Notes: generated from the sequence alone by a model not told the origin. Positions 28,423-50,270 are shown, numbered from the stretch's first letter. The stretch: DNA of 64,000 nucleotides from an uncultured Actinomycetes bacterium (GCA_963845355.1 CAWJRV010000028.1:1427-65426); one strand, 5' to 3'. Made by a program: numbers and translations.

Positions 28423-28513
28423 GAGGGGTGGCCGAGCGGTTGAAGGCAGCGGTCTTGAAAACCGCCAGGGGTCGCAAGGCCCCTCGTGGGTTCGAATCCC
28501 ACCCCCTCCGCCA
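28423..28513 (+). tRNA. tRNA-Ser (anticodon TGA), CCA encoded; integration target of the island
   Basis: Acceptor stem ggagggg/cccctcc, anticodon loop ctTGAaa, long variable arm, T-arm gtggg-ttcgaat-cccac. Confidence 0.9.
28454..28513 (+). repeat. attL core (3' 60 nt of tRNA-Ser)
   Basis: cttgaaaaccgccaggggtcgcaaggcccctcgtgggttcgaatcccaccccctccgcca is repeated at 50210-50270. Confidence 0.85.
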
Positions 28514-28583
28514 TTTGCAGCACTTTTGACCTCTGGCGGCGCCGCCTCAAAGGGCCCAACGCAGGGCCAACAGAGGAAATTAG

Positions 28584-28604
28584 TTGGTGACATTCTGGTG
28601 ACTT
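28584..28604 (+). promoter_or_regulatory. Two TGGTGAC(A/T)T repeats; candidate integrase arm-type sites (P' arm)
   Basis: tTGGTGACATtcTGGTGACTTgg lies ~70 nt inside attL. Three related copies sit at the other end of the element. Confidence 0.4.
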
Positions 28605-28621
28605 GGTTTCGGCGGAGTGCC

Positions 28622-29891
28622 TTACGACGCTCCGTCTACCGGCGCCGACAGGGCCGTTTCGAGGCGCTGCACGGCGTCGTCCTGCATCGACGGCAGGACG
28701 TGCGAGTACGTGTCCAGCGTGATCGCGATGGTCGAGTGCCCCAGCATCTCGCTGACGACCTTGGGATGGACGCCTTGCCCGAGTAGCAGGGTCGCGCAGG
28801 TGTGCCTGAGATCATGGAAGCGGACCTTGTAGTCGGTCTTGCCGATGAGGCTGCGCCAACTGCTCGCAAAGCTCTCCGGGTTCCAGGGGTCGCCCCTCTC
28901 CCCCGCGAACACGAGACCCTGGTCCCGGTAATCCTTCCCCTGAAGCAATCGCATGGCCGCCTGGTCGCTCTTGTGCTTGCGCAGAGCGGCAGCCGGCCGT
29001 CTCGGACAACATGACGACGCGGCGGCCACGCGAGGTCTTGGGCTCCTTGAACAGGGGTGCGCCGTGTATCCATTGGAGCGATTCGACGCAGCTTAGCGTC
29101 CTTGCGTCTATATCTATGTTGCGCCAGCGCAGCGCGAGCAGTTCGCCGCGCCTCATGCCCGTGTGGATCGCCAGCAGGACTGGTAGGTGCATCCTCGTGC
29201 CCTCCGCCTTGGCGAGCAGAGCACGAACCTGTTGGGCGTCAATCGTCTGCATCGGCTTGCGTGCCGGCTTGGGCGGCTGTACAGCGTCACAGACGTTGCG
29301 CACGACGAGGTTCCACTTCACGGCCCGCTTGAGTGCTTCGCTCAGAACTCGGTGATGATGCAGCACGGTCCTTGGCGAGAGGCCGGTCGGTTGGGGCTCG
29401 GCCTTCGCCCGCGAGCGCCGCTTGCCCTTCGGCTTGGCCACCTTCCGCTGGATGCGCCCGGACTTGAGCGCTTTGGCGTAGTAGCTCTGGACGTGCAGGC
29501 TGGTGAGCTTCGGTAGCAGCACTTCGCCCAGAGCTGGCACCAAGTGCAGCCGCACGATCTGCTGGTAGCGCAGTAGGGTCGCGGGCGACAGGTTCGACTC
29601 ACACGACGAAAGCCACTGTTCGAGGTAGTCGCGCACCTTGAGGCGTTGCGGGTCGATGTACGCGCCCGTCGCAATCTCGTTGAGGATGCGGGCGTGGTAG
29701 TTCTCGGCTTCCGTCTGGAGCCCATGGAACGTGTGTCGGCGCCGGATGCGCTTCCCGTCTGCGTCGTAGCCCAAGTCGACCACGAACGTCCAGACCCCCT
29801 TGCCCCTGCTCTTGATCGGCGCCTTCAACGGGACGCCCGTTGCTGGCGCTTCTGAAGAGGCCAGCACACCGAGACTTGGCGCCACCGTCAT
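28622..29891 (-). pseudogene. int: Tyrosine integrase interrupted by one frameshift (~28991-28997)
   Basis: The N-terminal frame reads KSRGKGVWTFVVDLGYDADGKRIRR...HTGMRRGELLALRW...KTSRGRRVVMLSETA. The C-terminal frame continues AAALRKHKSDQ...FHDLRHTCATLLL...LGHSTIAITLDTYSH (catalytic Tyr). The start may be ATG 29891 or TTG 29828. Confidence 0.8.
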
Positions 29892-30702
29892 CGGCTGGGC
29901 AGAAGCGCTGGCGGCCGTCCGTGACGAGGAACGGGGTGCGGCATGTGTCCAGCTCACAAAGCCTCACGAGTCCATGGTCAGCCCAATCGCCGACGTGAAA
30001 CCAGACGGTCTCAACGAGTGTTCTCGTGCTTGTCAGCCAGCGGAGGCGATTCTCGGGCAGGCTGGGGAAGAGAATCGTCTGAAGACTGCGCGTGTTCGAC
30101 GCGACCAGGTCCGCCACTATCTTCATAGCCAAGCCCGGTGCGTCCACATCGGGGTACATCTCGTTTCTGACTTCGAGGCCAAGAGCCAAGGTGAACCCGA
30201 GTGATGCGTTGGACGTGTCGACGAGGGCGGCCGAGCGCCACTCCGTCTGGTAGCGCGCCAAGACGGCTCCGACCTCCTCGGCAGAGTCGCCCTGGAGTGC
30301 CTCTAGCAGTTCCGTCGCGAAGCGAACCGACCTCGCCTGTGCCAGGAACCACGGCAGGGGGTCGCCTCCCGCCAGTCGACCCACCTCGCCCCTTATCGCC
30401 GCCTCCCTGCTCTCGTCGACCTCGGCCCCAGCCTTGAAGTCGGCCCACTCGTCCTCTAGCAGCGTTGGCACCAGCAACTCGCAGTAGCCGAGCAGGCCGT
30501 ACCTGCGGACGAAGTCACATGCAGACCTCTCGTCGACGACCTTCGACAGGGCGTTAGGCAAGTTGGGCACGTCCTGAGGTCGGTAGGCGCGTCGACGTAC
30601 TTCGTCCGGCTCATAGTTGATGACAAGCCCTTTGACGAACGGCTCGTCGCCCGCTCGCCAAGACACGCGGTCAACCTCAACGTGAGACTTTCTTACGCTC
30701 AT
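29599..30702 (-). CDS. Leftward hypothetical protein ending in a Cys4 (CGNR-like) zinc-finger motif
   Basis: MSVRKSHVEVDRVSW...LCELDTCRTPFLVTDGRQRFCPADDGGAKSRC. The last ~100 codons overlap int and look like filler. A shifted frame gives LQKRQQRASR-stop at ~29825. Confidence 0.5.
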   Translation of the reverse strand: MSVRKSHVEVDRVSWRAGDEPFVKGLVINYEPDEVRRRAYRPQDVPNLPNALSKVVDERSACDFVRRYGLLGYCELLVPTLLEDEWADFKAGAEVDESREAAIRGEVGRLAGGDPLPWFLAQARSVRFATELLEALQGDSAEEVGAVLARYQTEWRSAALVDTSNASLGFTLALGLEVRNEMYPDVDAPGLAMKIVADLVASNTRSLQTILFPSLPENRLRWLTSTRTLVETVWFHVGDWADHGLVRLCELDTCRTPFLVTDGRQRFCPADDGGAKSRCAGLFRSASNGRPVEGADQEQGQGGLDVRGRLGLRRRREAHPAPTHVPWAPDGSRELPRPHPQRDCDGRVHRPATPQGARLPRTVAFVV

Positions 30703-30737
30703 GTCTTGCTATTTCTCTACCGTTAGAAGGACCAATG

Positions 30738-30746
30738 TGCTATAAT
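30738..30746 (+). promoter_or_regulatory. Extended -10 promoter TGCTATAAT of the rightward Cro-like gene, followed by an 11-bp palindrome
   Basis: aaTGTGCTATAATgacc, then GACACcGTGTC at 30759-30769. AAGGGGG ribosome-binding site and ATG at 30797. Confidence 0.55.
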
Positions 30747-30796
30747 GACCTATACAAAGACACCGTGTCAAGAGCAAATGCGAACAAGGGGGCACC

Positions 30797-30997
30797 ATGA
30801 AGACACTCAGGATGAAGCGGATTCTACGCGACTGGAGCCAAGCGGAACTCGCTCGGCAGTCGGGACTCAGCCCGAGCACGGTGTGCCAGATCGAGTCCGG
30901 ACGGTTTCGGCCATACCCTTCGCAACTCGCCAAGATCGCTCGGGCACTCGACGCCTCCGACAACCCCGGCGCTCTGCTTGCTGATGTCGAGCGGTAG
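30797..30997 (+). CDS. XRE-family HTH regulator (Cro/CI-like)
   Basis: MKRILRDWSQAELARQSGLSPSTVCQIESGRF. Confidence 0.8.
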   Translation: MKTLRMKRILRDWSQAELARQSGLSPSTVCQIESGRFRPYPSQLAKIARALDASDNPGALLADVER

Positions 30998-31208
30998 CAC
31001 CGAGGCGTGGACCTGGGACGACTTCCCCGAAGTGCTCCAGCCGCGTCACATCATGACCATCCTCGGAGTCTCCGACGCGACGGTCTACGACCTGAACCAC
31101 AACATGCTGAAGGGCGTGGCTCGCAGGGTCGGACGTCAATGGCGCTACCCCAAGTCGGGGGTGCGCCGGCTGCTGGAGGGCGACATCGTCGCTCAAGTCG
31201 AGGGGTGA
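30984..31208 (+). CDS. xis: Excisionase-type HTH DNA-binding protein
   Basis: LQPRHIMTILGVSDATVYDLNHNMLKGVARRVGRQWRYPKSGVRRLL. Confidence 0.7.
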   Translation: MSSGSTEAWTWDDFPEVLQPRHIMTILGVSDATVYDLNHNMLKGVARRVGRQWRYPKSGVRRLLEGDIVAQVEG

Positions 31209-32338: not shown

Positions 32339-32483
32339 CGGGAGACTGTGAAGGGGAAACCATGACCATAAACGCAGCGAGGCCCGGGCGCCGTGGCAAG
32401 CAGACCCGGACCTCATCAAATCTACTTTTCATGATACTCCATCGGAGTCGGTCCGTCAACCAGGGTTGCCCTGCGGGTCCGAC

Positions 32484-33635
32484 ATGAACGGCGAGGTTCG
32501 TATCCCGAAGGACGAGTTAGACGGAGTCCTGAGCTTGTCGGCCGGCGGCAAGATCACCCCGAAGGAACTCCTTGCCGCCCTCACCATCTGTCGCCTCACC
32601 TACGGCCACAACAACCAAGGGCACACGAGTGTCCGAGCCCAGGCTGTCGCCGATCGCACCGGCATGAGCGTGCGGGGCGCGCAGCGGAGGATCAAATCCC
32701 TCGGCGACAAAGGCGTCCTGAAGACCTGGGGCGCAAACAGCAGGGGCGTGCTCGATGTAGGACTGCACCCCGACGTGTCGATAGCGGGTCAGGCGATGCA
32801 GGCGCGCCTGGCGAAGGAGTACGCCGACAGACAGTCCGGAAAGCCCACCCCGTCACTAGCTAGTGACGCAGTACCCCGTCACCAGCTAGTGACGCACCCC
32901 CCGTCAGTAGCTAGTGACGCACCGATGAAGCATTCCTCTAGAAGCACACCCATTGAAACAGTCCCTAGAGAAGGGGACCTCGCTAACGCTTCGGGGGAAA
33001 CCCCCACTCGGGCGACCGTCGAAGCAAGCCCCTGCGCTCCTTGCCCCCTCGTTAGCCCAGGCACGAAAGACGGCACCGGGGAGGAGGCGGAGCCGCACGT
33101 TACGCCGCCGGCTCCCTATCACCAGAGGGATTCCCTCCTCTCTGACGACACGCTCGCCCGGGCGGTCGGCGCCTTCGACCCGGATGGTCGGGTGTCCGCA
33201 AAGGCGGGAAGGGGAGCGATCCTGCGTCTCTGGGTGCGCGTTCTCGACGAGGCGTGGTGCTCTGGATATCAGCGCGCCTCCGACGAACGTCTCGTCGAAG
33301 TTCTTCTGCCGATCATGGAGCGAGTCGGGGCCGAGAAGGCCAAGTACATCCTCCGCGATGACGTGCGCTATCCGGCCTCCTATCTCGACAGCGTTGGCCG
33401 CGACGAGTTGCTTTTCGAGGAGGACGGCGACCTGCGGGAGCTCAAACAGGCCGAGCGTGAATCTGACCGCGACATCGAACGCACAGCCGTGCCCAATGAG
33501 AACGCTAGGAAGCTGGCGGAGTTGGCACGCCAGACGATGGATCGTATGGCGGAAGAGGGCCGCTCCATCTTCGGGCCGCCCGAAGAGGAGCCGGAGTGGG
33601 AGCGCGGTCTGGGTTACTCGATGGGGATGGCGTGA
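32484..33635 (+). CDS. Replication-organiser-like protein (winged-helix N-terminus resembling phage O/replisome organiser)
   Basis: ITPKELLAALTICRLTYGHNNQGHTSVRAQAVADRTGMSVRGAQRRIKSLGDKGVL. Acidic C-terminus. Iteron-like repeats lie inside the gene. Confidence 0.6.
   Translation: MNGEVRIPKDELDGVLSLSAGGKITPKELLAALTICRLTYGHNNQGHTSVRAQAVADRTGMSVRGAQRRIKSLGDKGVLKTWGANSRGVLDVGLHPDVSIAGQAMQARLAKEYADRQSGKPTPSLASDAVPRHQLVTHPPSVASDAPMKHSSRSTPIETVPREGDLANASGETPTRATVEASPCAPCPLVSPGTKDGTGEEAEPHVTPPAPYHQRDSLLSDDTLARAVGAFDPDGRVSAKAGRGAILRLWVRVLDEAWCSGYQRASDERLVEVLLPIMERVGAEKAKYILRDDVRYPASYLDSVGRDELLFEEDGDLRELKQAERESDRDIERTAVPNENARKLAELARQTMDRMAEEGRSIFGPPEEEPEWERGLGYSMGMA
32851..32921 (+). repeat. Three copies of a 16-bp palindrome GTCACTAGCTAGTGAC (+CGCA): candidate origin iterons
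   Basis: cGTCACTAGCTAGTGACgca (32851-70), cGTCACCAGCTAGTGACgca (32878-96), cGTCAGTAGCTAGTGACgca (32902-21). Spacing is 27 and 24 nt. Confidence 0.7.
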
Positions 33636-33937
33636 TGCTGTTCCTGGAGTCGATCCGCCAGCAGAACGGCTGGCCGCGAGTTCAACTCGCCCTCACGGCA
33701 GCCATGGACTACGAGCGTCTTTGCCACCTTGAGGCCGGCGTCGTGTCGCCAACCACGCAGGAGGCCGAGAAACTCGCTGCCGTGCTGAACTACACGGGCT
33801 CCCCGGCGCAACTCTTCACGCCCGTCGTCACGACTACCACGCCGAGTCGGCCGGCGACCAGGACCGAGGCGCCACGGAAGATTCCGCTCAAGGGCGGTCG
33901 GTTGCCCTGGTCGACTTTGAGGACGCCGAGCGCGTAA
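33635..33937 (+). CDS. XRE-like HTH protein (3' end uncertain)
   Basis: ATG overlaps the rep stop (TGATG). IRQQNGWPRVQLALTAAMDYERLCHLEAGVVSPTTQEAEKLAAVLN. Confidence 0.5.
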   Translation: MLFLESIRQQNGWPRVQLALTAAMDYERLCHLEAGVVSPTTQEAEKLAAVLNYTGSPAQLFTPVVTTTTPSRPATRTEAPRKIPLKGGRLPWSTLRTPSA

Positions 33938-34564
33938 TGGAGCACCTGTGGTACCGGATGAAGGGCAACACCACGGACTATGCCGTCTCGCGGTAGCGTG
34001 CTACTCCACCGGTTCGTTACCGGCGCGCGCGCGGGACGGTCGTCCACCACAAGGACGGCGATGGCCTCAACTGCCGCAGAAGAACCTGCGAGTGCTAGCC
34101 GCGCCGCACACGTCCGTACGACAGGGCCGGCGGCAGGTTCTTCGAGCCAGTACAAGGGCGTGACGAAGAGTGGCAACGAGGGAAGACCGTGGCAGGCCCG
34201 CCTCGGGATCGACCGCAAGCACTACTACCTGGGCCGCTACGCTTCCGAGGTGGAGGCTGCCCGAGCCTACAACGCCGCTCAGGCGAAGTTCGTCGGCTTC
34301 ACATCTGGCGCTTACTTCAACGACATTCCGAAGGGATCGCGCTTCGGCCGCATCGTCCTACCAGAGGCGTCGCTGCTACGGCTCAACAATGCTGCCGCAG
34401 AGTACCGGCTTCGAAGCAAGTCCGAGACATCTTATGGCCACGAGGGGAAAGTCGCGGCTCTATTCGCACGGGGGGTGGCTCATGGGGAGTCAGAAGAACA
34501 GGTTTGCGTCGCCAGCCAGGACGTCCGTCGCCATCAGCCCGGTCGCGACAAGCAGGGGCAGTAG
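33871..34564 (+). pseudogene. HNH endonuclease with AP2 DNA-binding domain, broken by about five frame switches
   Basis: Pieces in different frames: IPLKGGR | VALVDFEDAERVMEHLWYRMKGNTTDYAVSR | GSVLLHRFVTGARAG | TVVHHKDGDGLNCRRR | NLRVL | ...SSSQYKGVTKSGNEGRPWQARLGIDRKHYYLGRYASEVEAARAYNAAQAKFVG (AP2). Confidence 0.65.
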
Positions 34565-34567
34565 GCC

Positions 34568-37500
34568 ATGCCGCTAATCGTCGGCGACCTCAACGGCAAC
34601 CCGACCATCGTTGCGCCCCCGCCGAAGAAGAAGAAAGACGACCAAGGCCCCCTCGGCCCACCCACTTCCCGAGACCAGAGACGGTGGCGTCCCCATCGCC
34701 CGTCGCGCCAGCGGCTCCCGCCGCCACGCCGCCTGCCGAAATCCGCATCGCCAACATCGTGCAGGGCTACCATGCCGCCACCGGCCGCATCCCCGCGGCC
34801 GAGAAGATTCACGACGCACTCTCCATCTCCACCGGCCAGGAGGATGCCTTCTACTGGATGCAGCACTTCGCTCCGCTTGGCAATCCGGTAGTGCCGCTCT
34901 CCATCCGGCAGGCCGCCGCCAAGGGCGACTACCTCTCGCCGGGAAAGTTAGACCCGACCATGCCGCCGGATGTAAAGAGTCTGGTGCCCTACAACCAGCA
35001 GACAGTCACGACGCAGACCCCGCAGGAGTTGCTGTATGGCGGCGAGGCGACAGTCGGCCCGAGCCAACAGTTCTTCGCTGGCGGCCCCAATCCGCAGGAG
35101 CAAAGTGCCAAACAGGGACTCCTGAACGTCGTCCACGCCCTGACGCTGCCGACCTACGCCCAGCAGTATCAGAAGAACGTGGCCGACGCTGCGCTGTCGA
35201 AGTGGCCCGCCCTCAAGCCGCTGGGCCAACTCCTCGCCATCCCCACGTCCACGAACTTGCAAGACGCCATGAACGTCGGCGTGCTGAAGAACTACCTCGA
35301 TTCGCGCGGCTTCAGTGGAGCGCTCACCTCACCGAGCGGTACGCCGCAGTACATCGGGCCGCTGTCTGCTCCGTTCAAGAACACGGCCAAGCTCAACAAC
35401 GCGATCCGCACCTACGTCTTCTACCACGACCTCGCTCCCGCTTTGAGCGGCGACCTCAACGCCGAGACGGAAGCCGGCGCCACGGGGATGCTCCAGTCGG
35501 GCGAGTCCGTCGTCGACTATGTGCGCAACATGCCGGGATCAGACGAGGACCACAAGAATCTCGTCTACCTCTGGTCGTTCACCTCCCGGCCCGCCGACAT
35601 GCCCGCCGGGGCCTTCGCCGAGTGGTATCACGCCAAGTATCCGTCGCTCACTCCCGCCATCGTCCAGCAGCAACTCGCGCAGAAGAACACCAACAACCTG
35701 TCGGACATGAGCGCTATCCCCGACGACGTAAAGCAGGCGTTCTCCTACATCAACGCCAAACTTCCGAGGGACTGGCAGAGCGCCAATAGCGATGTCGGCA
35801 AGGCAGCGAACTCCGTCGTCGGCTTCATGGTGCGCCCACTATCGGATGTCTTGCAGGGCAACATCCGCGAGATCGGACCCGGAGCGCAGGGCAAGGTCGT
35901 CGGCCACATCAAGGTCGACGGCATGGTCCCGGCTCAGTTCGTGGCCCAGACGGTCAACTACGCCCTCAGCGTGCCCGAGCGCCAGATCGCCGCCCAGGTC
36001 TACGCCACTCTCGGCCTGTATCGCATGGCGAACGGCGACGAGAAGCTGAATCAGGTCATCAGCCAAGCGGCCAGCCAGATCACCCAGACCAAGGTGACGC
36101 CGGGCCAGGAGTTCGTCAAGGCAGTCGGCCTCGACCCGGTCAACCAGAACTGGCTCGCCTGGATGGGCGACCAAGCCTCGATGATCGCCGCTGGGTCCGT
36201 TTATGACGCCGCCGGGAAGGCCCTCGTCTCCGGCGCGCTTGACACCGACGCCGCCCGCGCCATCGCCGGGAGCGTCGGCATCAAGACCGACGCTCAGGTC
36301 ATCGCCTCTCTGAACGCTGTCGAGGACCCACAACTGCGTCAGTTCGCCATGCGCCTGCACTACGACGCCTGCTCGCCGAGCGAGTCCGCGCACTGGTCCA
36401 CGCTGGGCACCAACCCCGACGACATCGCGGTAGACCCGCGAGTGTCGGCGGCGACATCCTCGCCCCATTGGCGCGGGCCGTCCTCGCCGAGTCTAGCGTC
36501 CACATGGAAGCTACGGGCCTTCCAAAGCGAAGATGCCCCGGCCTTGCAGCGCGCCTTCCACCTCTCGACCATGGACGCATCGCCGGTCGACCTGACCTCG
36601 ACCAGCCGCGCCGACATCCAGACCTTCCAACATCTGCTACACCACGGCTATGAGGTCAAAGACGCGATGGCCTGGGGCGCCAAGATGACGCAGGCCATGA
36701 TCGACGACGCCAAAGCCGCGACTCCCGCCGAAGGAGAGGCGGCCCCGGCGCGCCAGTTCGCCAATGCCTCGAAGGTCAAGGCCGACCTCGAACAGGAGAT
36801 TGCCGATCACTATCGCTGGGACGAGAAGCCCAGCACCGACAACCCCGCCGGCGTCGTGCGGCAGCCCTCAGCGAAATTCATCCAGGCCATCAAAGACGAC
36901 CCGCTCATCGGACTCAACTGCGAGGACCCCGCGCGCCCCAGCTTCTACGACGAGTACCAGCACTTCGACCAAGCCCTCCAGAAGCACTACTCCACGCGCT
37001 TCGGCCCAAACCGCATGTATGCGCCGACGCTCGACGAGAACGGCCAAGTCATCGAAGGATCGAAGGCCCCTACCCCCACGACGCGCACCAACCAGACCGC
37101 GCGACTGGCCGACATCGACCGCAAGATAACCGCTCTGCGCCGCAGGGCGTCCTTGCAGAGCGAGTTCGACGTCACGGGCGCCACGCCGGAATGGGGAACC
37201 GCGACCAAGCCGAACCCCAAGGGCTACGTGCTGGGTGCGGACCAAACCATGCGCGCCCCGGCCCCGAAAGAGAACCTTCTGGCACAGGCCAACCCCGCGA
37301 CGACAGAGGTGCAGTTCAGCCCCGACGAGTTGCGGGCCGAGCGCGAGGACCTGCTGCTGCGCCAGAAGGAAAACGCCAAGGTCGGCGAGTCGTTCCACAG
37401 CCAGAAGACCGTTGACTCAGACCAGCCTTACACCGACGCCGAGCTCTGGCACCACATCCGAGACTCTGGCGGCATCAAGCCAGACGACGCCTACAAGGAC

Positions 37501-37839
37501 TCGCACGTCACCGGCCGCGAGAACACGGCGGCCTACAAGGGCCTCGCGCGCAAGGGCGGCCAGCCCATCGACGAACTCGCCAGCGACATCGCCGCCAACT
37601 TCCCGCACTTCGGCATCCGCAACGCCGACGACCTGCGCGAGTGGCTCGACAACTACAAGCCGCCGGCCAAGGAAGCGTCGACAGCCGAGCGCGACATCTA
37701 CGGAACCAAGGCGAGCCAAGACCCGCGTATCTGCGGTGCAGAAGGCGCTCTCTGCCGCCCAGAAGGCAGATACTCCCGAGTCCAAGCTCGCCGTCGTCTC
37801 CAGGGCCATCGACAAGATAGACATGACCCATGTGACTGA
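34568..37839 (+). CDS. Giant island protein, segment 1 (no recognisable domain)
   Basis: Sensible sequence in the 34189-37839 ORF from ~34690 (AEIRIANIVQGYHAATGRIPAAEKIHDAL...). The start is either ATG 34568 (MPLIVGDLNGNPTIVAPPPKKKKDD, another frame, tightly following the previous stop) or GTG 34684. Confidence 0.6.
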
Positions 37840-40390: not shown

Positions 40391-40869
40391 AGAACAAGGA
40401 GTATCTGGCGCTCGACGCCAAGACCGCGCTGCCGGCGCTCGTCGCCCAACTCAACAACCGCTTCGGGCACGCCAACCACGACGCCATCGCCTTCTCTCTG
40501 GCCAGCGGGAAAGACCCGTTCGCCGTCACCGACAAGTGGATCACGCCGGAGATTCAGTCCTCGATCAAGGTGCCCAACTGGGTCAACCGTATCAACGTGC
40601 AGACCAGCGGCACGCTGTCGACGGCTTCCTATCACGACATGGTGTCGGCCTTCGAGAACGGCGGCGCGGCGACGCGGGCCGACCTGCGCGCCTCGTCGGT
40701 GTGGCCCGAGTTTCTGGCGCGCTACCGCACAGACCAGGACAACGCCGCCGACAGCGCCATCGGCTACGCCCTCACGGCCGCAACGACCGGGCTGACGCCC
40801 GATCAGCGCACGATGGTAGGGATGCCCCAGGGTCACCCGCAGAGATGGATGTCATCGGGGGCTATCTGA
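40385..40869 (+). CDS. Giant island protein, segment 3 (or separate gene lacking an obvious start)
   Basis: ...AKAMTAKYGKG | LLKNKEYLALDAKTALPALVAQLNNRFGH.... The only in-frame start (GTG 40297) would overlap segment 2 by 94 nt. Confidence 0.45.
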
Positions 40870-41915
40870 ACCGCTCCCAGCAGTGGCACGACCAGCTCGC
40901 CAAACTGCCGTTGTTCTCAAAGGCATGGATCGCGGCCTACTCCGCCGAAAAGCGCGACCTCGCGACGTTCCGCACCGACAACAAGGTGCCGGCGCTCTCG
41001 ATGGATGCCGCCACCCTGCTCTCCCGTCTCGGGCTGGACAAGGAGCGCAACTGGGGCGGCCTCACCCCGCAAGAGCAGAAGATCGCCGACTACTGGAACA
41101 AGCAGACCATCAACGTCAAGATCACCGGCACTACCATCGACATGAACGGCTCGGCCGACCTCAAGCAAGTCCTCAAGATGGGCTCCCAGTTGCAGGGCGA
41201 AGCCAAGCAGCAGTGGCTCGAAAACCTGCGCGCCTTCTGGTGGAAGGGCGTCCTGCAAGTCGGCGAAGCCTGCCGCAAGTCGCTCGCTGCCACCTACGGC
41301 AAGTGGGGCTCGAAGGCCGGCGTCTACACGCCCGCCAACAAGTCCGGGGCCATCCTCGCCTACGCCGCCACCTTCGCCGGTACGCCTTACCTGTGGGGCG
41401 GCAAGACGCCCGCAGCGGGGTTTGACTGCTCGGGATACACGGCCTACGTGTACTCACACTTCGGCATCGACATCGGTAGCGGCACGCAGAACCAACAGCA
41501 CGCCGGGATGCCGGTATCGACCCAGCCGAAGGCGTGGCAGCCGGGCGACCTCATCTTCTACAACACCCACGACGGCCAGCCCTCGCCCTCGCATGTGGCC
41601 ATCTACGCCGGCAACGGCCTCATCTGGCAGGCGCCGCACACCGGAGCGAGCGTCGAGAAGGTCTCGTGGACTGAGCCCGGAACTGATGTCGTCGCGGTGC
41701 GCCGCGTCCTGCTCGGCAAGAGCGGCGGCCCCATTCAGGGCGAGAGTCTGACCTCCAACGACGGCAAGGCGATGCTGGCCAGCTTCGAGACCTTCTGCGG
41801 CCAGCTCGCCCAGCTCGACGTGCGGGTGGGCGGCGGACAGTTCGCCGACGAGTGGAAACGCTACAACACAAAGCACAACATCGCACGCGCCATCATCGAC
41901 CCGAGTAGGTTCTAG
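40845..41915 (+). CDS. NlpC/P60 (C40) cell-wall peptidase domain protein
   Basis: GTPYLWGGKTPAAGFDCSGYTAYVYSHFGI (Cys nucleophile), PSHVAIYAGNGLIWQAPHTG (His residues). ATG 40845 overlaps the preceding frame by 25 nt. Confidence 0.8.
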   Translation: MDVIGGYLNRSQQWHDQLAKLPLFSKAWIAAYSAEKRDLATFRTDNKVPALSMDAATLLSRLGLDKERNWGGLTPQEQKIADYWNKQTINVKITGTTIDMNGSADLKQVLKMGSQLQGEAKQQWLENLRAFWWKGVLQVGEACRKSLAATYGKWGSKAGVYTPANKSGAILAYAATFAGTPYLWGGKTPAAGFDCSGYTAYVYSHFGIDIGSGTQNQQHAGMPVSTQPKAWQPGDLIFYNTHDGQPSPSHVAIYAGNGLIWQAPHTGASVEKVSWTEPGTDVVAVRRVLLGKSGGPIQGESLTSNDGKAMLASFETFCGQLAQLDVRVGGGQFADEWKRYNTKHNIARAIIDPSRF

Positions 41916-41971
41916 TTGAACCGACCACAGAGCATGAACGAGGAGGTCAGCATGACTGAGGAATCCGACTA

Positions 41972-42834
41972 ATGGGCTGGAGCGTATCGACCGGCAAGCC
42001 GCCGGCCAAGAAGAAGCCGCCCAAGACGGGCGCAGCACGTTGAGTGGCACGAGTAGCGGGTCTGGCGCGAAGTCGACCAGCACGGGAGTGAAGTCGTATT
42101 CGTCCACCGTCTACGCCGACTACCTCAAGGAGATCGGCATCAACCCTGGCGCGCAGGGCGCGTGCGGCGGCGATCAAGTGGGCCATTGGAGCGCGGCCGA
42201 CAGCTCGATGTTCCTGCGCTACGTCAAGCAGACAATGCCCGGCCAGCTACCTTAAGACGAGCCTCGGCAAGAGTGACATCCGCAACTTCTTGGGTCAGTG
42301 GCGCTTGTACTCCACGGGCAAGCCATCGAAGGGCGACATGCTGAACTTCACGAGGGGCAACTGGACGGCATGGCAGATGGGCGAGTTCGTCCGTACGACT
42401 CCCTCTGGAAGACCTACCAGGCAGAGGGCATCGGCAACGCCACGCAGCAGTTGCAGGCCAACCCGAGCGAATTCTCGGCCTACGCCCAGCAGTTCGGCAA
42501 CATCCTCAAGAGCTACGGCGTGCGGCCCGACCAGAAGGGCACCTACAACGGTCAGCTCAAGATGGCCTTCGGCGGTCGCATCACGCCGACGACCTAGCCA
42601 ATAACGCGCAGACCTACTTCGGTGGGCGCGAGTCTTACGGCGATTGGACGGGCGCCGCCCCGACGCAGCAGACTGAGCAATCAGGCGCTCTACGGCGGTC
42701 AGGGTTCGGTCGCCGCCCAGTCGCGCATCGTGCAGGCTTTCAACCAGATCAAGAATTTTCAGCAGACTCCCGGGGCGTCCTTCAGCACCGGCACCACGAA
42801 CACCGGAGCCATTCAGCAATCGAGCGTTTTCTAG
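41972..42834 (+). pseudogene. Hypothetical gene fragmented by ~5 frame switches
   Basis: The sense can be followed across frames: MGWSVSTGKPPAKKKPPKTGAA | SGTSSGSGAK...VKQTMPGQ | SYLKTSLGKSDIRNFLGQWRLYS...WQMGEFV | PYDSLWKTYQAEGIG...FGGRIT | DDLANNAQTYFGGRESYGDWTGAAPTQQT | QALYGGQGSVAAQSRIVQAFNQIKNF... Confidence 0.5.
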
Positions 42835-43014
42835 CCGGAGGGGGGCGCGAGGGGTCGCAGTCGTGCCGAAAAACTACCGATAGCAGTTTCGACAAGGGTA
42901 GACTAACGATTGCGAGGAAGTATTTCAGTCAAGGCTGCAATCCTCCGATTAGTGGTATAAGAAAGCGTCTGGAACGCTCGTGCGATGGAATGCGACACAT
43001 GGACAGAGGGCACC

Positions 43015-43221
43015 ATGACGCATGCACAGACAGAGCGTTTGGCACAAGACATCAGCAAGCATAAGGGCCAGTGGGTTCTCGTTAAGGGAACTCGAGTCGT
43101 TGCTGCTGCGCCAAGCGTCAAAACTGCAATCAACAGCCTCCCCCAGAAAGATCGAAGTAAGGTTCGCGCTCAGTTCTGCCCGAAAGAAGACTACACGGGT
43201 TCGTCTTTTTCCGCGCTCTAG
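43015..43221 (+). CDS. DUF5678-like small protein
   Basis: MTHAQTERLAQDISKHKGQWVLVKGTRVVAAAPSVKTAINSLPQKDRSKVRAQFCPKED. Lies in a lower-GC stretch. Confidence 0.6.
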   Translation: MTHAQTERLAQDISKHKGQWVLVKGTRVVAAAPSVKTAINSLPQKDRSKVRAQFCPKEDYTGSSFSAL

Positions 43222-43585
43222 GTGCGGCTTCCCTCTCTCCGATTCCGACGCCCACCGGCCGCGTGGAAACACGCGTGTCGACGTCGCTTTCCGGGACGAT
43301 CCTGACGGCGTTCCGTACATGGCCCTCGTTGATTCCGGGTCGATACGAACGATCGTGCCAGCATCCGCGCTCGAGGGAATCGACATCGGCGAGCCGCTTG
43401 ACCGCATCGACAGGCTTTGTTTCGCCGTCTGGCAGCTTGACCGCGTTCCGATACATCGCCTCGACATGCGCATCGTCGCGCCGGCGCCGTGGGATGACAT
43501 CGAGCTCCCGGATGTTCCGGTGGCGGTTGCGGATGCCGACTTCCCTTCATCGTCCTTGGGTCCACAGCCCTTACCCACGTGGTAG
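43222..43585 (+). CDS. Retropepsin-like (clan AA) aspartic protease, probably with an early frame disruption
   Basis: PYMALVDSGSIRTIVPASALEGIDIG has the D-S-G active-site context. No in-frame start exists. GTG 43222 follows the upstream stop directly but in the neighbouring frame. Confidence 0.5.
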
Positions 43586-43741
43586 TCCTTCTGCGAGACG
43601 CGGACCAGCGACTTCACCTGAAGTCGACAGAGGCGTTCGCCAGGCCCGGCACCACGCGACGCCACATTCTGATGCGGTGCGGTGCCCGTGACGACGAAGC
43701 CGCTCCTCTGAGCCGGCCCCGCATCCGTGCGGTAGCTGCGC

Positions 43742-44251
43742 TCAGAACCGCGAGACGACGATGGCGGCAACCTCGAAAGCTATCCCCACGACGATGTACT
43801 TGAAGGCCCGCCAGCCCCGACGAAGTGTTCTCTGCGCTCCCTGTTCAGGCTGTCGGCAAGCGCCTTGGAAGCGTCCTCCTCCATTGCGACCATGCCGCCT
43901 CGTAGGTCACGCAAGGACTGCCAGATGGCCTTGATCTTCAGCGTCCGTGTCGGGATAGGAGACACTGAGGGTGAGGCTGGCTGACCCGGTGATGGTCCCG
44001 ATACGCCCCGTGGCTGCCAATCTAATGTTTCGTGGCGGAGCTGGCCTCCGCCATAGCCACGACCAAAGTCTTCTCAGCCACCGCCAGGACGCCGAACACA
44101 TTCGCGTAAGCGCACTCATCAGGCGTGCCCAGAACTGCCGCCCTCGCGACCGGACCGCTGACCACACGCCCTCCTCAATCAACCCGTCGGCAGCGCCGGC
44201 GGTGAGGAAGACGAGGCTAATGATGCTCAGTACGAAGGCGGGCCACGACAT
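43742..44251 (-). pseudogene. Two small membrane-protein ORFs with frame disruptions
   Basis: MSWPAFVLSIISLVFLTAGAADGLIEEGVW | ...GTPDECAYANVFGVLAVAEKTLVVAMAEASSATKH-stop (~44022). Then VSPIPTRTLKIKAIWQSLRDL...NRERREHFVGAG | WRAFKYIVVGIAFEVAAIVVSRF-stop (43742). Confidence 0.4.
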
Positions 44252-44459
44252 GGGCCGAGTGTCTACCAGCCGCAGACAGCGAAAGGGCCGCCCTTGGACG
44301 GCCCCTCGCCGGCGTGCGCCTGGTCACTGTCTCCCCGCGCGTCCGCAGTAGCGTAGCTTCCTGCCGCGCAGCCTAGCGACCATCCGTCTGCCCCAACAAG
44401 GCCGCGTGACCCCATTTCGGTTGACGTTCGCCTCGCACGCCCGCAACCGGCCCACTCGT

Positions 44460-46045
44460 CTACAGCTTGGGGAAGCTGCGGGCTGAGATGACGCGGTCGT
44501 ACTTGCCCGAGCCCATGCCGAGCGTGATGGTCCACTCTGACCCCTGAGTGTATGTGGTGACTGTCGTATACCCCGGAGAGTATGTCGTCGAGGAAGATGA
44601 CGAGGTGGAAAACGCCAGCGGGTCACGCGACCTCACACACTGCAGAGTGGTGAGGAAGTCGCGCGTGTAGCTGTTCCAGTCCTTACCGACGCAGTCCCAG
44701 GCGATATAGCTTCCCTCGGCAACCTTGTTGATCGTGGTCCTGCTTTTCGCTCGGACGTAAAACGCCAGGACTGGGGTGTCCGAACCCCCGGCCGGCGTCA
44801 AGATCACCATCGCATCAATCGCCATTGGGTCCTTGATGACAAGTTTCCCCATCCCGTCGCGCATGTGTCTACGCAGAATGTCTCCGTTGGCTAGCCGAAT
44901 TGGCTTGACCACCATGACCGTCGTCGCAGCGTCACCCGCTCGGAGCTTGCAGAGGCCGGGCGACGCCACTGTGACCGTGTAGGTGAGCGGTAGATTCTGC
45001 CCTGGCGCGACCTCGGCAGGACGCGCGCCGGCCTCTTTGCCGTTGGTCTCAATGGTTCCGGGGAAAGTCGGCGAGACGTCTCCGAGGTTCTTGACCGAGG
45101 CGGTCACGATGATGTCTTCGCCTACCGAAAAGACCCCCGACACGGAATGTGGCAGAGCTTCGCCGACCTCTTCGGTTCGAGCGATTGCCTTGAGTCCGCT
45201 GACATGGAATGTGGCCGGGCGAAGTGCGACCGCGGCAATCTCAGTGCCGCCGAGAATCAGCAGATGATGGCCACGCGACGTACCGCTGGGAACGGGAAGG
45301 TCGACAGACCGCGTCTGCCCAGCCGAGAGAGGCAGCTGCATGTCAGCCTGCTTGATGCCATCGAGGGCATAGGAGCCCGTGTAGGTGCCGGCGAACAGGC
45401 CGTCGTTCTTCACCTTGACGGTCAGCGTTGGCGCAGCACCGAGGATCACGCGCTTGTCGCTGGGGACGACAACCCGGTAGTGGGGCATCCACCACAGCAC
45501 GGCCGCAAAGACGATGGAGGCCGCGAGGAGCGACGCGACGGTCGCCGCAAACCGCTTGCGGGATGTCAACTTGGCCAGACCCCACAAGAGCGACGCGACG
45601 AGTACCGCAGCCAGCAGCGTGAACGCAATGCCGACACCGTTGCGGACCGAGGCTCCCCACCCACGGCGAACCAGACTACGATTGCGAAGACTGCAATCGC
45701 AACCACTGCTCGCCAGACCCAACGCCAGCCGCTAAGGCCACCTCCAGACAACGCTGCTGGCGGTGCGACGAGCGACGGAGGGGTCGCAGCGCCAGTGGGC
45801 GCTGGGCCGCCCTGATGTGGGACTGCATGAGCGGGAGGACGGGGCGCGGCTGCTACCTGGATCACCCACTCAAGCAGACCCTCGCGCGCCCAGTCGACCT
45901 GGCCCAGAGCGTCGTAAGTCAGGACGTCCTGGGCCGTGATGGGGCCATGGCCTTGAAGGATGAACTGGTGGCGGGTCTCGTCGTAGGTGATGGTGCTGCC
46001 CGACCAGCTCGTCGTTTGATTGAAGACCGCGACAAGCAAACTCAT
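44460..46045 (-). CDS. Large membrane protein: cytoplasmic N-domain, Pro-rich linker, TM helices, extracellular Ig/CARDB-like repeats; one frame switch (~45645-45665)
   Basis: The 159-aa ORF (MSLLVAVFNQTTSWSGSTITYDE...AIVVWFAVGG) continues in sense into the 420-aa ORF (GASVRNGVGIAFTLLAAVLVASLLWGL...) across a G-run. Confidence 0.55.
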
Positions 46046-46169
46046 GTTGACCCCCCGGTCGACCAGTCGAGTCTACTACGAATCAAAAGCGGCGAAGAAA
46101 CCAGCAAAGAGGATGGTCCAGGCGGCCACAAAAGCCACCGAACCCCAGACCAACGCTGCGGAGCCGAAG

Positions 46170-46907
46170 CTAGACTGTCCGCGCCTCGACGTAGAGGTCG
46201 TTGCGGAGCAGGTAGCGCACGCGACTCTGGATACCAGCGGCCGCCCCGACGCGTCGTCACGCCGGCATCGTTCAAGCGCTGGCAGATGGTCCGCAGGCTA
46301 AGTCCGTCTTGTGACCACTCTTGAACTTGGGCGACCGTCGCCAGTTCGCCCGCATGAGCCTCCAGGAGCCCGTCTGAGCGCGTGTATCCGTACGGCGTTG
46401 GTCCGTAGGCCCGCAGGTGCTTCTTCTTGTGTGCGAGGGCGGCCGTCGTGCGCTCGCTGATCAGCGCGCGCTCGAACTCGGCAAAGCCGGCCAGCATGGT
46501 CAGCATCATGCGTCCGGTGCTGCCGGCCGTGTCGATCGCCGCGCCGCCCATGTCCACCAGGTGCAGCGCCACGCCGGCGGCGTTCCAGCGCTCGGTAAGG
46601 ATCAGGGCGTCGGCAGCGTTGCGGAATAGTCTGTCAAGCTTGTAGGCGACGACGTGCTGGGCCTTGCCGGCCGCGATCAGCTAAGCAGCTCCGCGCCGCC
46701 GGGCCGCGTGTGAAGGTGCTTGTAGGCGCTCACGCCCTCGTCGCGGATCGTCGCTGCGACCTCGAAGCCGCGCATCGTGCAGTAGGCCCTCAGGCGCTCT
46801 TCTTGGGCTTCGAGGGAGACGCCGTGGCGCGCCTGCTCGTCGGTCGAGACGCGCACGTAGAGCACGGCTCTGTCTGTCGCGGTGATCTTCATCGCGCCCC
46901 CCTTCAC
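46170..46907 (-). pseudogene. Serine recombinase (resolvase domain + start of recombinase domain), two frame switches and truncated
   Basis: MKITATDRAVLYVRVSTDEQ (catalytic Ser) ...GAELL | LIAAGKAQHVVAYKLDRLFRN...GRMMLTMLAGFAEFERALISERT...GGRWYP | SRVRYLLRNDLYVEARTV-stop. No zinc-ribbon or coiled-coil part follows. Confidence 0.7.
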
Positions 46908-47353
46908 AGCACACTCTTGAGGTAGTCATCTAGCACCGATTGCAGGATGAGGCGCTGCTTGCCGGTCGCGTTGCGCAGACAGCGAAGTGTGCCGTCGTCG
47001 CACCAGCGCCGCACGGTCATCGGGCTGACCTCGTAACCTCGCTCGGTGAGATAGGCGGCGGCTTCTGCCGTCCTGAGCGTCTGCTCGTTCGGTGACGAGA
47101 CCCGACTTCTGGACCTCGCCCAGAACTCCTCAAGCGCGCTCACGGGGATGCGCCGATGCTTGTACCCGATGGCGCCGCGCTCCTCGCGGACCCGCTGCAA
47201 GACCTCGGGCGGTGGCACGCAACGCAGCTTGCCTTCCTCGCAGAGCGTCTGGATGGTGCGCAGGTTGATGTCCTTGAGGCCGCGCTCCCTGAGGATCTGA
47301 AGCGCCTCAGTGGTCGTGTAGGGTTTCCTGCTGTTCGGCTTCCTGGCCGCCAC
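46904..47353 (-). CDS. Double excisionase-type HTH protein (possible recombination directionality factor or regulator)
   Basis: Two HTH modules: YTTTEALQILRERGLKDINLRTIQTLCEEGKLRCV and LRTAEAAAYLTERGYEVSPMTVRRWCDDGTLRCL. Its stop overlaps the recombinase GTG as GTGA. Confidence 0.7.
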   Translation of the reverse strand: MAARKPNSRKPYTTTEALQILRERGLKDINLRTIQTLCEEGKLRCVPPPEVLQRVREERGAIGYKHRRIPVSALEEFWARSRSRVSSPNEQTLRTAEAAAYLTERGYEVSPMTVRRWCDDGTLRCLRNATGKQRLILQSVLDDYLKSVL

Positions 47354-47840: not shown

Positions 47841-48176
47841 CTAGCGCTCGCGACTTCGTCTAGCCTCGGTGTAGTCGCAGATGGTCGGATCGGAGAAGAT
47901 GATCGCGGCCTGGTCGCGCTGCTCGGCGATGTACTTGTCGAGCCAGTCGCCCGGGCGCTGTGCTTCGTGCTCGAGCTCGTGCGCCGCCTCGTGCAGTGCG
48001 GCCGGGGCCACCCGCTCGTCGTGCGTGACTGTTGGTCCCTCGAAGTCGATGAACCACTCGCCCGTGCGCTTGTAGACGACGATCAATTCCTCGACTCCGA
48101 AGCAGTCATCAGTGAAGTCGCCGATCTTGTCGAGTAGACGCTGCTTGCGACGGTCTGTCTGTGCGGTGGTGCCCAT
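47841..48176 (-). CDS. Hypothetical acidic protein
   Basis: Intact 111-aa ORF with coding-like composition (LIVVYKRTGEWFIDFEGPTVTHDERV...). No family recognised. Confidence 0.5.
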   Translation of the reverse strand: MGTTAQTDRRKQRLLDKIGDFTDDCFGVEELIVVYKRTGEWFIDFEGPTVTHDERVAPAALHEAAHELEHEAQRPGDWLDKYIAEQRDQAAIIFSDPTICDYTEARRSRER

Positions 48177-48964
48177 GGTCTCCTCCTTGCTTGATTCTTG
48201 CCTACGACCAGGACACTAGAGGAGCGTGTGCGAGTTGTCAACTACCGACCGTTACAGACAGAGACGAGGCTAGCTCAATGGTTTCAGACCGGCATCCTGA
48301 CTGGTTGACGCTCGCGCCCGGCATGTGTGCCCATGCTCCCATCGTGTCGGTTTCGGCAGACTTTCGGGGAGCGTACCTGTCCGTGTTGCGAACCGCCTTC
48401 GGTGGGACTGTCCGCGTCAGTGCGCGATCGGGATGGCTCGCTGGCGGCTTGCTGGACGAGGCGCGCCTCTACTCGGTACGCCTGCGTCCTGAACCGTTCG
48501 GTTCTGGACAGACAGGCTCGAAGCGTGCGGGACGGCAGCGATGGAGGCAAATCGGGACGGGGTGATGAAGGGGGCGCATTGCAAGGTCGGCAGATCGGGA
48601 CAAGCGGCGGCGTTTCGCACCAGGCGCGCGAATGCGTGCATCGGCATGCGATCACCCGGCATCGCCGCATCCCCTCTTTACCGGATGGACAGAAGGACGG
48701 ATGACAGGATGACCGCAGAGGCGGCTAGAAGCTCGCTGGGCGCACAGGGCGAGCCGTGTGCGTGTTCGTGCCTGCTTGAGCGTGGGACCTGCTCAGGCAC
48801 CTGCTTGGGAGTGCCTGCACGTGCTTGCGATCAGATGCACGACGCGCCGCGTCGCCGGATTGGCGAGGAAAAGGGGTAGGTGCTTTAGTGCGCGCGCGAC
48901 ATATTCGCGGAATTGGGAGCTTAGCCCAAGCGTTTCATAACACCGTCTATCCCATTCTTCTTGC

Positions 48965-49132
48965 TCACGGAGGCGGGATTCGGGAAGTGTGCAGGAGCGT
49001 GGCGCCCCAAGCGAGCCAGCCGGCGGCGAGGAAGGCTTGCGGGAAGCTGCGATCCACGATGCCCCCACAGACGAAGAGGACGCCCAGGATGCAGACGATG
49101 ATGCCGCCGAAATAGAATCCCTCGCGCTGCAT
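48965..49132 (-). CDS. 55-aa two-TM peptide
   Basis: MQREGFYFGGIIVCILGVLFVCGGIVDRSFPQAFLAAGWLAWGATLLHTSRIPPP. Below the ORF-track length cutoff. Confidence 0.4.
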   Translation of the reverse strand: MQREGFYFGGIIVCILGVLFVCGGIVDRSFPQAFLAAGWLAWGATLLHTSRIPPP

Positions 49133-49162
49133 CTCAGCTCATGCGGCGATAGCCGAGGTAGC

Positions 49163-49345
49163 TCAGAATCCACCTAGCAAGAACAGCACCAGGGCGATGG
49201 CGTCGGGATAGTAGAGCGCGTCGGGGCCGAGGGGATGGTTCAGCACGGCGTCGGCGATGACCACCACGCCCCAGAGCGCGATCAGCACGCCCACCGCGAA
49301 CAGCACCTTGCCCCTCATCTCGACCCCCTCATTCTCCATCGCCAT
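49163..49345 (-). CDS. 60-aa two-TM peptide
   Basis: MAMENEGVEMRGKVLFAVGVLIALWGVVVIADAVLNHPLGPDALYYPDAIALVLFLLGGF. Its ATG abuts the methyltransferase stop (TGA-ATG). Confidence 0.5.
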   Translation of the reverse strand: MAMENEGVEMRGKVLFAVGVLIALWGVVVIADAVLNHPLGPDALYYPDAIALVLFLLGGF

Positions 49346-49996
49346 TCACTTCGCGATGACAAAGTAGATCGTCGTGCGCCGAGGGTGGTGCGTCGTGAAC
49401 ACCGTCGCATCCGGCCCAAGGAAGTCGCACAAGCGATCGGTGCTCTCGAACTCGTTGTCGTGCTCCCGATTGCCCTTCCCCCTAGCTTCGGGCGCCACCT
49501 GCGGCGTCGACCCGACGATGTGACCACCCTCTGCGAGTGCGTCCCGCAAACGTGCCATCACCGCCCGCCCGTCCACTGCCGAAAGGTGCTCGATGGCCTC
49601 GAAGAAGCAAATGAGGTCGTACCCGGAGCCAGGCAGGGGTTTCCTGATGTCGGCGCAAGTGAAGGCAATGTTGCTGCGGGAGTGCCGTCGGCGAGCGACC
49701 GCAAGCGCTGCGGGATCACGGTCGAGAGCGTCGATGCTGCCGGCCGTGTCGGCCCAGAAGATATCGCTGAAGTAGCCATCGCCGCAGCAGACGTCGAGGA
49801 CCCTTCCACCCCCGGGAAGGTACAGAGCGAGCCAAGACGCCGCGCTCAATCCAGAAGAGGTTGCGGGGCCATAGCAGCTCGTCGATGCGATGGTCGTACC
49901 AAGTGTGCCTGCCGGCCCTCCACTGTTGTAGCAGGCGCTTCCCGGCGTGGCTGCGCACGACCGTTGCGAACTCGTAGATCTCGACTCCCCCCTCAA
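49346..49996 (-). CDS. Class I SAM-dependent methyltransferase with one frame switch (~49835-49845)
   Basis: GGRVLDVCCGDGYFS (motif I) and YDLICFFEAIEHL. The N-terminal sense (TWYDHRIDELLWPRNLFWIERGV) lies in the adjacent frame. Confidence 0.6.
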   Translation of the reverse strand: MRGESRSTSSQRSCAATPGSACYNSGGPAGTLGTTIASTSCYGPATSSGLSAASWLALYLPGGGRVLDVCCGDGYFSDIFWADTAGSIDALDRDPAALAVARRRHSRSNIAFTCADIRKPLPGSGYDLICFFEAIEHLSAVDGRAVMARLRDALAEGGHIVGSTPQVAPEARGKGNREHDNEFESTDRLCDFLGPDATVFTTHHPRRTTIYFVIAK

Positions 49997-50067
49997 AACC
50001 CCTCAGAGCATACGACCGCTACCGGACGGCAGCAATAGGCGCGTTACGTCGTCTGGCCGCCGCACGG

Positions 50068-50096
50068 TTGGTGGCATTTTGGTGACATGGTGACTT
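50068..50096 (+). promoter_or_regulatory. Three TGGTG(A/G)C(A/T)T repeats; candidate integrase arm-type sites (P arm)
   Basis: tTGGTGGCATttTGGTGACATGGTGACTTcgg lies ~115 nt inside attR, in the same orientation as the left-end copies. Confidence 0.4.
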
Positions 50097-50209
50097 CGGC
50101 TGCCCTCCTGTGGTCGTTTCCGGTTCCTTGGCCAGCGACCTGCTCGTATGCAGGAATTCTTGTCTTCGGTTCGGTTGGCTTCTGGAACCTTGCGGAAGCC
50201 TATGACGAA

Positions 50210-50270
50210 CTTGAAAACCGCCAGGGGTCGCAAGGCCCCTCGTGGGGTTCGAATCCCACCCCCTCCGCCA
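50210..50270 (+). repeat. attR core: orphan copy of the tRNA-Ser 3' end with one extra G
   Basis: Identical to 28454-28513 except cgtGGGGttcg versus cgtGGGttcg. No tRNA 5' half lies upstream. Confidence 0.85.

Follow-up and report, generated by a model that had tools for sequence, protein, structure and literature searches.

The DNA analysed here (the window) is a 64,000 nt stretch from an uncultured Actinomycetes bacterium of soil (GCA_963845355.1, CAWJRV010000028.1:1427-65426). It carries an integrative element, referred to below as the island, that is inserted into the 3' end of a tRNA-Ser(TGA) gene. The borders of the insertion are exact and the same site is empty in close relatives. The gene content suggests that the island is of temperate-phage ancestry and is most likely a cryptic, defective prophage, and we regard this explanation, with the insertion itself included, as probable. 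An earlier note on this DNA had proposed site-specific integration into the tRNA 3' end, and the proposal is supported both by the empty sites and by alignments that break at the repeat borders.

Borders of the island

The tRNA-Ser(TGA) gene is complete, occupies 28422 to 28513 on the plus strand (ARAGORN; Rfam, 59.8 bits) and has the same sequence as its counterpart at the empty site of L001, a related contig described below. The earlier note had the location right, but its start of 28423 should be 28422 according to both ARAGORN and Rfam. The last 60 nt of this gene (28454-28513, plus strand), which begin with the first base of the anticodon loop (CTTGAAA) and finish with CCA, form the left attachment (att) core, attL. 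The right core, attR, is a 61 nt 3' fragment of tRNA-Ser at 50210 to 50270 on the plus strand. The two copies consist of exact blocks of 37 nt and 26 nt and differ, as had been reported, in a single G that the right copy has in addition, on the 5' side of its T-stem (GTGGG versus GTGGGG). Repeat halves of 25 and 26 nt are expected 0.00 times by chance in shuffled sequence, and elsewhere in the window the only matches are at the T-arm/acceptor end of two paralogous tRNA-Ser genes. The repeats of the window include no third copy of att inside the island, such as tandem elements would have.

The right copy had been said to lack a tRNA 5' half, and this is the case: neither ARAGORN nor Rfam calls a tRNA at 50210 to 50270 and the sequence upstream of it is unrelated to the tRNA 5' half. 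Rfam returned nothing but tRNAs for the whole window. The DNA specific to the island therefore extends from 28514 to 50209 (21.7 kb). Its G+C content is 63.9% in comparison with 69.7% for the flanks, and the G+C content at third codon positions (GC3) is also lower within the island. The right repeat is followed, after 17 nt, by a host zinc-ribbon gene (50288-50491, minus strand) that serves as a marker of the flank outside the element, and so genes of the host type do resume directly after the repeat. The same 67 aa protein adjoins tRNA-Ser in the related contigs L001 and L002.

The site in related genomes

We used the exact sequence of the 67 aa zinc-ribbon protein to retrieve L001 (150 kb) and L002 from public assemblies. 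In both, OsmC, tRNA-Ser(tga), the sequence GAGCGCCTACGT... and the zinc-ribbon gene are contiguous with no insert, which is the arrangement that the earlier note had suggested looking for. The flanks are approximately 98.7-98.9% identical to the window in L001 and 93.5-98.9% identical in L002, and the alignments of both contigs stop precisely at 28513 and start again from 50210. L011 and many more distantly related Thermoleophilia-like metagenome-assembled genomes (MAGs) likewise have an empty site. All the empty-site contigs originate from samples other than that of the window. The earlier note had named two findings that would speak against integration, namely that all relatives carry the insert and that the right repeat belongs to a second complete tRNA gene. 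Neither is the case, because the 21.7 kb is missing from L001, L002 and L011 and there is no second tRNA gene at the right repeat. The element is most likely polymorphic in the host population.

When species-representative genomes are compared by the serS protein encoded nearby, the host falls among uncultured Actinomycetota, and the nearest records are MAGs named Actinomycetes or Thermoleophilia, many of which come from the Microflora Danica Nanopore project (PMC12313526). The order serS, (OsmC), tRNA-Ser(tga) is kept in Thermoleophilia-like MAGs, most of which have no insert at the site.

In other genomes the same site is filled by elements with related integrases, which are approximately 84% identical to that of the island in L004, L005 and L090 and 48% identical in L019. 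The L019 element additionally encodes homologues (43% identity) of the island XRE and HTH_17 proteins described below. L004 (1-757), L005 and L090 represent one organism (JGI 3300075321/3300075494, CAAGKR010046965.1). Its integrase, 84% identical, is without the first ~72 residues, the homology beginning abruptly at window position 29612, and a 160 nt segment approximately 820 nt further on resembles window positions 44274 to 44434. Judged by these sequences, the insert of this organism appears to be a heavily deleted relative of the island. The island itself was seen in the window contig only; an exact look-up of its 111 aa protein (47841-48176) gave no record elsewhere, and in a further search the single match was the window's own protein.

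Integrase and attachment arms

The tyrosine integrase gene lies at 28622 to 29828 on the minus strand, with a TTG start that aligns with the methionine of its homologues. The spacer between the left core and the integrase stop codon, which ends at 28622, is 108 nt as had been noted previously; what had escaped notice is that an extra base near 28994 breaks the reading frame. When the frame is joined across the shift, the protein matches Phage_integrase (5.3e-28, with the match spanning the junction) and Phage_int_SAM_3 (2e-10), and there is a weak match to Arm-DNA-bind_4 at the N-terminus (E=0.0072; 16.3 bits against a cut-off of 22.3 bits). The joined protein aligns without gaps to homologues of ~385 aa, and the columns of the catalytic R, K, HxxR, H and Y residues are invariant.

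There is a tandem pair of candidate arm sites, TGGTGACAT followed by TGGTGACTT, in each arm. The P' pair (28585-28604, plus strand) is 72-91 nt from the core, in the interval between the core and the integrase gene, and the P pair (50080-50096, plus strand) is 114-130 nt before the right core. In the 64 kb there are four copies of the motif TGGTGACWT, in comparison with 0.32 expected; all have the same orientation, two in each arm, and there are none elsewhere. L004 and L005 have the same tandem pair in the same place beside the 84% identical integrase, while the surrounding spacer has diverged, and in L019 a variant pair (two copies of TTTGGTGCC) lies beside the 48% identical integrase at tRNA-Ser(tga). 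From their sequence and position, the most plausible reading of the TGGTGACWT pairs is that they are integrase sites of the arm type and belonged to a lambda-like attP. A metagenome collection scanned with the arm-site pattern gave no match, although L004 has the pattern, so this collection does not contain the samples from which L004 came.

These features suggest how the island may have arrived. A lambda-type tyrosine integrase would have inserted the element into tRNA-Ser(TGA), using an attP that consisted of a tRNA copy, from the anticodon loop to the CCA end, between two arms that each carried a tandem pair of TGGTGACWT. Strand exchange most likely took place in the anticodon loop, which is the simplest model because the block of identity begins exactly there. 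The tRNA on the left would have been rebuilt with the 3' part borne by the element, and the original 3' fragment of the host would have been displaced to the right as a relic of 61 nt. This assignment of left and right parts follows the general rule for such islands (PMC4383910). The extra G would then be either a mutation in a functionless relic or a base-calling error in a run of G.

Predicted lysogeny and replication genes

Near the integrase gene are two small genes that, with it, would form a lysogeny module. The first (30797-30997, plus strand) encodes an XRE/Cro-CI-type helix-turn-helix (HTH) regulator of 66 aa (HTH_3, 7.7e-12; PHROG transcriptional repressor, 8.5e-12) and is divergent from an open reading frame (ORF) to its left. 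The second (30978-31208, plus strand) encodes an excisionase-type protein of 76 aa with an HTH_17 domain (8.4e-07; PHROG excisionase family, 0.0025), which is a candidate Xis. The ORF on the left (29599-30702, minus strand) has a coding-like part of approximately 267 aa (~29900-30702) in the GC3 frame plot, its open frame extends into the integrase gene, and it has no match in Pfam, PHROGs, NCBIfam or PADLOC.

Further along is a gene for a candidate replication initiator of 389 aa (32466-33635, plus strand) with a lambda-O-like N-terminal winged helix. The matches are weak, every one of them below the curated cut-off, but concordant across three libraries (Pfam Phage_rep_O, 0.0082; PHROG 'replication initiation O-like', 4.2e-4 and 5e-4; NCBIfam phage_O_Nterm, 1.6e-4). 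There are three 18 bp palindromes, CGTCA(C/G)(T/C)AGCTAGTGACG, within the initiator gene (32851-32919), spaced 26 and 25 nt apart. The pattern gives six strand-matches in comparison with 0.03 expected, and the palindromes are followed by a less G+C-rich stretch. The arrangement is like that of the lambda ori inside gene O, and by this analogy the palindromes are candidate iterons of a replication origin, and the initiator and its in-gene iterons would make up a replication module. No P-like helicase loader was found.

The two genes that follow encode a second HTH_3-type regulator of 113 aa (33596-33937, plus strand; HTH_3, 2.2e-4; PHROG transcriptional regulator, 4.7e-4) and a protein of the HNH endonuclease family (33980-34564, plus strand; PHROG 99 'HNH endonuclease', 1.8e-12; PHROG 374, 1.9e-08). 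In the latter the match covers the DNA-binding part of the profile only. Pfam AP2 was also considered for this ORF and gave no match, and the PHROG assignment to the HNH family was taken instead.

The giant gene

The largest gene of the island (34568-41915, plus strand) would encode a protein of ~2,448 aa whose C-terminal domain is a peptidoglycan hydrolase of the NlpC/P60 type (NlpC_P60, 2.7e-21; frame plot). It is present in five pieces separated by four frameshifts, near 34665, 37715, 40383 and 40833. The reconstructed frame of 2,448 aa has no internal stop codon and a high GC3. An exhaustive HMMER search found approximately 20 relatives, nearly all of them single proteins of 2,100-3,200 aa, and the pieces in the window match these in order, from an N-terminal MxxIxG...KKKK motif, which is in the frame of the ATG at 34568, to the NlpC/P60 domain and the last residues. 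Since the homologues are single proteins and the pieces match them in order, we conclude that 34568 to 41915 is one gene. The best relative among 15 billion proteins is at most ~31% identical, and some members of the family have NlpC/P60 at their end.

Intact homologues (2,205-2,440 aa; 24-29% identity) are present in four IMG/VR viral contigs of 42-51 kb (IMGVR_UViG_3300022555_000113, 3300009175_000029, 3300025764_000005 and 3300025864_000004), where they were located at, for example, 6902 to 13519 of L006, 6929 to 13906 of L007 and 9491 to 16813 of L008. In three of the four contigs the gene order is TerL, an ORF of ~770 aa in the portal position, HNH, the giant gene, a 585 aa gene, a 189 aa gene and the major capsid gene, and L008 has a tail spike gene further downstream. 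The giant gene is preceded by an HNH gene in the viral contigs and in the island alike; no other gene is common to them. The position between portal and capsid, together with the hydrolase domain, leads us to infer a virion role for the giant protein: it may be packaged, ejected and used to breach the cell wall. The island would thus have an HNH-family gene and a gene of virion-module origin, followed by a right arm of accessory and relic genes.

These relatives surfaced only through a HMMER search of representatives combined with an alignment-based scan. The alignment-based scan of genome contigs for giant homologues returned nothing, nor did a final search for homologous proteins, single-protein scans of viral contigs with the N-terminal part of the giant protein and with its NlpC/P60 part gave no match, and neither the giant protein nor the terminase of the viral contigs had a tblastn match in GenBank phages. 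No Pfam domain was detected in the four members of the family that were scanned and none other than NlpC_P60 in the window copy, and none of the five contained MuF or another catalogued polyvalent-protein domain. The family has no match in the PDB by sequence or fold. An AlphaFold model of the segment encoded by 37700-40387 (mean pLDDT 57.6) likewise had no PDB match. BFVD returned only matches with low TM scores; these are large proteins, themselves uncharacterised, from an uncultured phage and from Streptomyces phage Manuel, and they led to no functional assignment.

Missing functions, disrupted genes and alternative explanations

Searches of the island's ORFs and long open frames with Pfam and PHROGs revealed no gene for TerL, portal, capsid or tail, and neither tblastn with every ORF of the viral contigs nor profile HMMs of their structural proteins gave a match there. 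Among the ORFs scanned there was no FtsK/SpoIIIE-type translocase (TraB), relaxase, VirB4 or coupling protein. From the lack of virion genes and of an FtsK-like translocase or relaxase, we conclude that the island is not a complete prophage, and not an actinomycete integrative and conjugative element (AICE) either. At 21.7 kb it is also small in comparison with the viral contigs that carry the giant gene (42-51 kb).

The island contains at least seven single-base frameshifts: four in the giant gene, one in the integrase gene and at least two in a serine recombinase gene, with a probable further one in a methyltransferase gene. None were seen in the 42 kb of flanks by a crude gene call. The serine recombinase gene (46042-46907, minus strand; frameshifts near 46680 and 46222) is a remnant from which the C-terminal part is missing; when joined, it matches Resolvase (2.1e-38) but Recombinase (5.3e-09) only over profile positions 5-55 of 102. 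There is also a weak or uncertain coding region at 41916 to 44459, with small ORFs and in-frame stops in the frame plot, in which no gene was recognised and no PHROG or Pfam match was obtained. Real decay would fit the truncated recombinase, this gene-poor stretch with its stops, the missing virion genes and the truncated integrase of L004, L005 and L090. Taken together, the missing structural genes and the frameshifted genes, the integrase among them, suggest that the island is most likely a cryptic, defective prophage.

Several points weigh against this. The giant gene is the sole link to virion modules, and no Pfam domain was detected in four of its homologues; the protein lacks a PDB fold match and its BFVD matches are weak. 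To arrive at the gene order of the island from that of the related phages, two or more deletions are needed. Nanopore consensus error, in a region of low coverage and strain variation, may account for the frameshifts, given that the nearest genomes are Nanopore MAGs and that L001 and L002 show local clusters of 1 nt indels; if so, what is left of the argument for a defective state is the missing structural genes. Junctions and frameshifts alike are read from the assembled sequence.

If the frameshifts are sequencing errors, the island could be an intact and active, small, self-replicating integrative element, such as a phage satellite or another non-autonomous element. It would use its integrase and Xis for excision and its own origin for replication, and would depend on a helper for transfer. 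Satellites combine an integrase, regulators, replication genes and few structural genes in approximately 20 kb, and the island is similar in this respect. Neither of the att cores is damaged, nor is any of the four arm motifs; the genes for the Xis-like protein, the XRE regulator and the initiator have open frames, and the 2,448 aa frame has no internal stop and a high GC3. All the disruptions detected, with the exception of the recombinase truncation, are single-base indels at short base runs. The nearest genomes are Nanopore assemblies, and L001 and L002 have clustered indels. However, the truncation of the serine recombinase is beyond base-calling error, the contrast between no frameshifts in 42 kb of flanks and at least seven in 21.7 kb would have to be explained, and the ~2.5 kb from 41916 to 44459 has a poor coding signal and in-frame stops. 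Additionally, no packaging-redirection gene was recognised, no helper is known, and the related site in L004, L005 and L090 holds an obvious remnant. We therefore consider an active element unlikely. A more specific version, in which the island is a satellite-like active element of an undescribed kind in uncultured Thermoleophilia, with its own ejection or wall-breaching protein of ~2,450 aa and without capsid or packaging genes, is more doubtful still; that protein would represent a family of giant virion proteins that cultured phages lack and in which NlpC/P60 is the only recognisable domain.

Transfer by conjugation, as an AICE or another integrative and conjugative element (ICE), is very improbable. 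The host is actinobacterial, an integrase, a Xis-like protein and a replication gene are found together at a tRNA, and NlpC/P60 hydrolases are carried by some Gram-positive conjugative elements; yet none of the translocase, relaxase, VirB4 and coupling protein genes of such elements was among the scanned ORFs, and the only large gene comes from a family of phage head modules. Equally little is to be said for an assembly artefact, in which a free phage or plasmid, with an attP identical to the tRNA 3' end, was fused with the host contig at the 60 nt common to both. The window probably comes from a metagenome assembly and a mis-join through the core would mimic the integrated form, but related integrases adjoin this tRNA in independently assembled contigs of other samples as well, a repeat of 60 nt is far below the length of long reads, and the core copies are one base apart, which indicates that they were not collapsed in assembly.

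Other genes of the right arm and of the flanks

The island carries several further genes to the right of the giant gene, all on the minus strand. A 420 aa protein with a hydrophobic N-terminal stretch (44460-45722) has a weak CARDB-like segment (Pfam 0.0013, below the cut-off), and its gene is an accessory gene. The serine recombinase remnant is followed by a gene for a 149 aa protein of the HTH_17/excisionase family (46904-47353; HTH_17, 9.6e-13; NCBIfam 'excise', 4.6e-10), which overlaps the recombinase start by 4 nt. Then come the ORF for the 111 aa protein (47841-48176), which has a high GC3 and no family match, and two small genes (48965-49345) whose translations are hydrophobic proteins of 55 and 60 aa with no Pfam match. 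The last gene (49346-49996) encodes an S-adenosylmethionine-dependent methyltransferase (Methyltransf_25, 4e-14; PADLOC mad2, 1.1e-15, methyltransferase domain only), and its N-terminus is probably frameshifted, with a change of frame near 49740 in the frame plot. A MADS defence system was considered and rejected, as the mad2 match of the methyltransferase and a weak mad1 match of the HTH_17 protein are to generic domains only. The genes at 46042 to 47353 and 49346 to 49996 may be what is left of a second element, or else of a defence locus.

In the flanks (26011-28513 and 59574-63068), serS is located ~1.1 kb upstream of tRNA-Ser(tga), and the genes for the three other tRNA-Ser isoacceptors (gct, gga and cga) are all within the window. 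L001 has an insertion of the IS481 family (L001 1608-2651, corresponding to window ~57840) that is absent from the window. In the adjoining part of L001 (2651-5840; window 55300-57600) many 1 nt deletions break up a GH9 glycoside hydrolase gene, the window copy of which is intact (711 aa). The window also differs from L001 at 23090, where a repetitive part of a coding sequence (GGCGCTCC...GTCAGGCG) has gained 24 nt in frame in the window copy as compared with that of L001.

Comparison with known systems

The island is a fully delimited example of its kind, with borders, an empty site, arm sites and a candidate origin, from uncultured Thermoleophilia-like Actinomycetota, a group in which hardly any mobile elements have been characterised. 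Together, its integrase, attP and tRNA-Ser(TGA) target could be of use as an integration tool or as a marker of strain variation, and the giant protein family, with no domain other than NlpC/P60, is a lead for phage biology.

Phage lambda has an attP with two and three arm sites that is acted on by Int and Xis, an intergenic attB, and an origin within gene O. The island resembles lambda in that there are candidate arm motifs on both sides of the core, a small HTH protein is a candidate Xis, and palindromic candidate iterons lie in the coding sequence of the putative initiator. The N-terminus of the integrase may be of the arm-binding type and that of the initiator may be O-like, both by weak matches below the cut-offs. 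It differs from lambda in that the target is a tRNA gene, there are two sites in each arm, the initiator matches are below threshold and no P-like loader was found.

Core proteins of the T7 gp16 type carry a cell-wall hydrolase. With its ~2,450 aa, the location of its relatives between portal and capsid and its terminal peptidoglycan hydrolase, the giant protein is similar to the large 'polyvalent' or internal/ejection proteins that tailed phages package in the virion (PMC5512222). It differs from the polyvalent proteins in that it lacks the domains by which that family is defined (PMC5512222) and has no match in GenBank phages, and the island copy stands alone, without packaging genes. The IMG/VR viral contigs, in contrast with the island, have a terminase, a major capsid gene and the ~770 aa ORF in the portal position, and in L008 a tail spike.

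Finally, Islander is a catalogue of tRNA-integrated islands and prophages that are mobilised by tyrosine integrases (PMC4383910). As in those islands, the tRNA gene is split and regenerated from element DNA, a 3' fragment is displaced, the ends are marked by the regenerated gene and this fragment, the integrase gene lies by the tRNA end and the site is empty in relatives. There is no difference in kind; what sets this case apart is the uncultured Thermoleophilia-like host and the frameshifted integrase. The mechanism of insertion and the architecture of the island are those of the textbook, and what is new is a member of this class in a poorly studied host.

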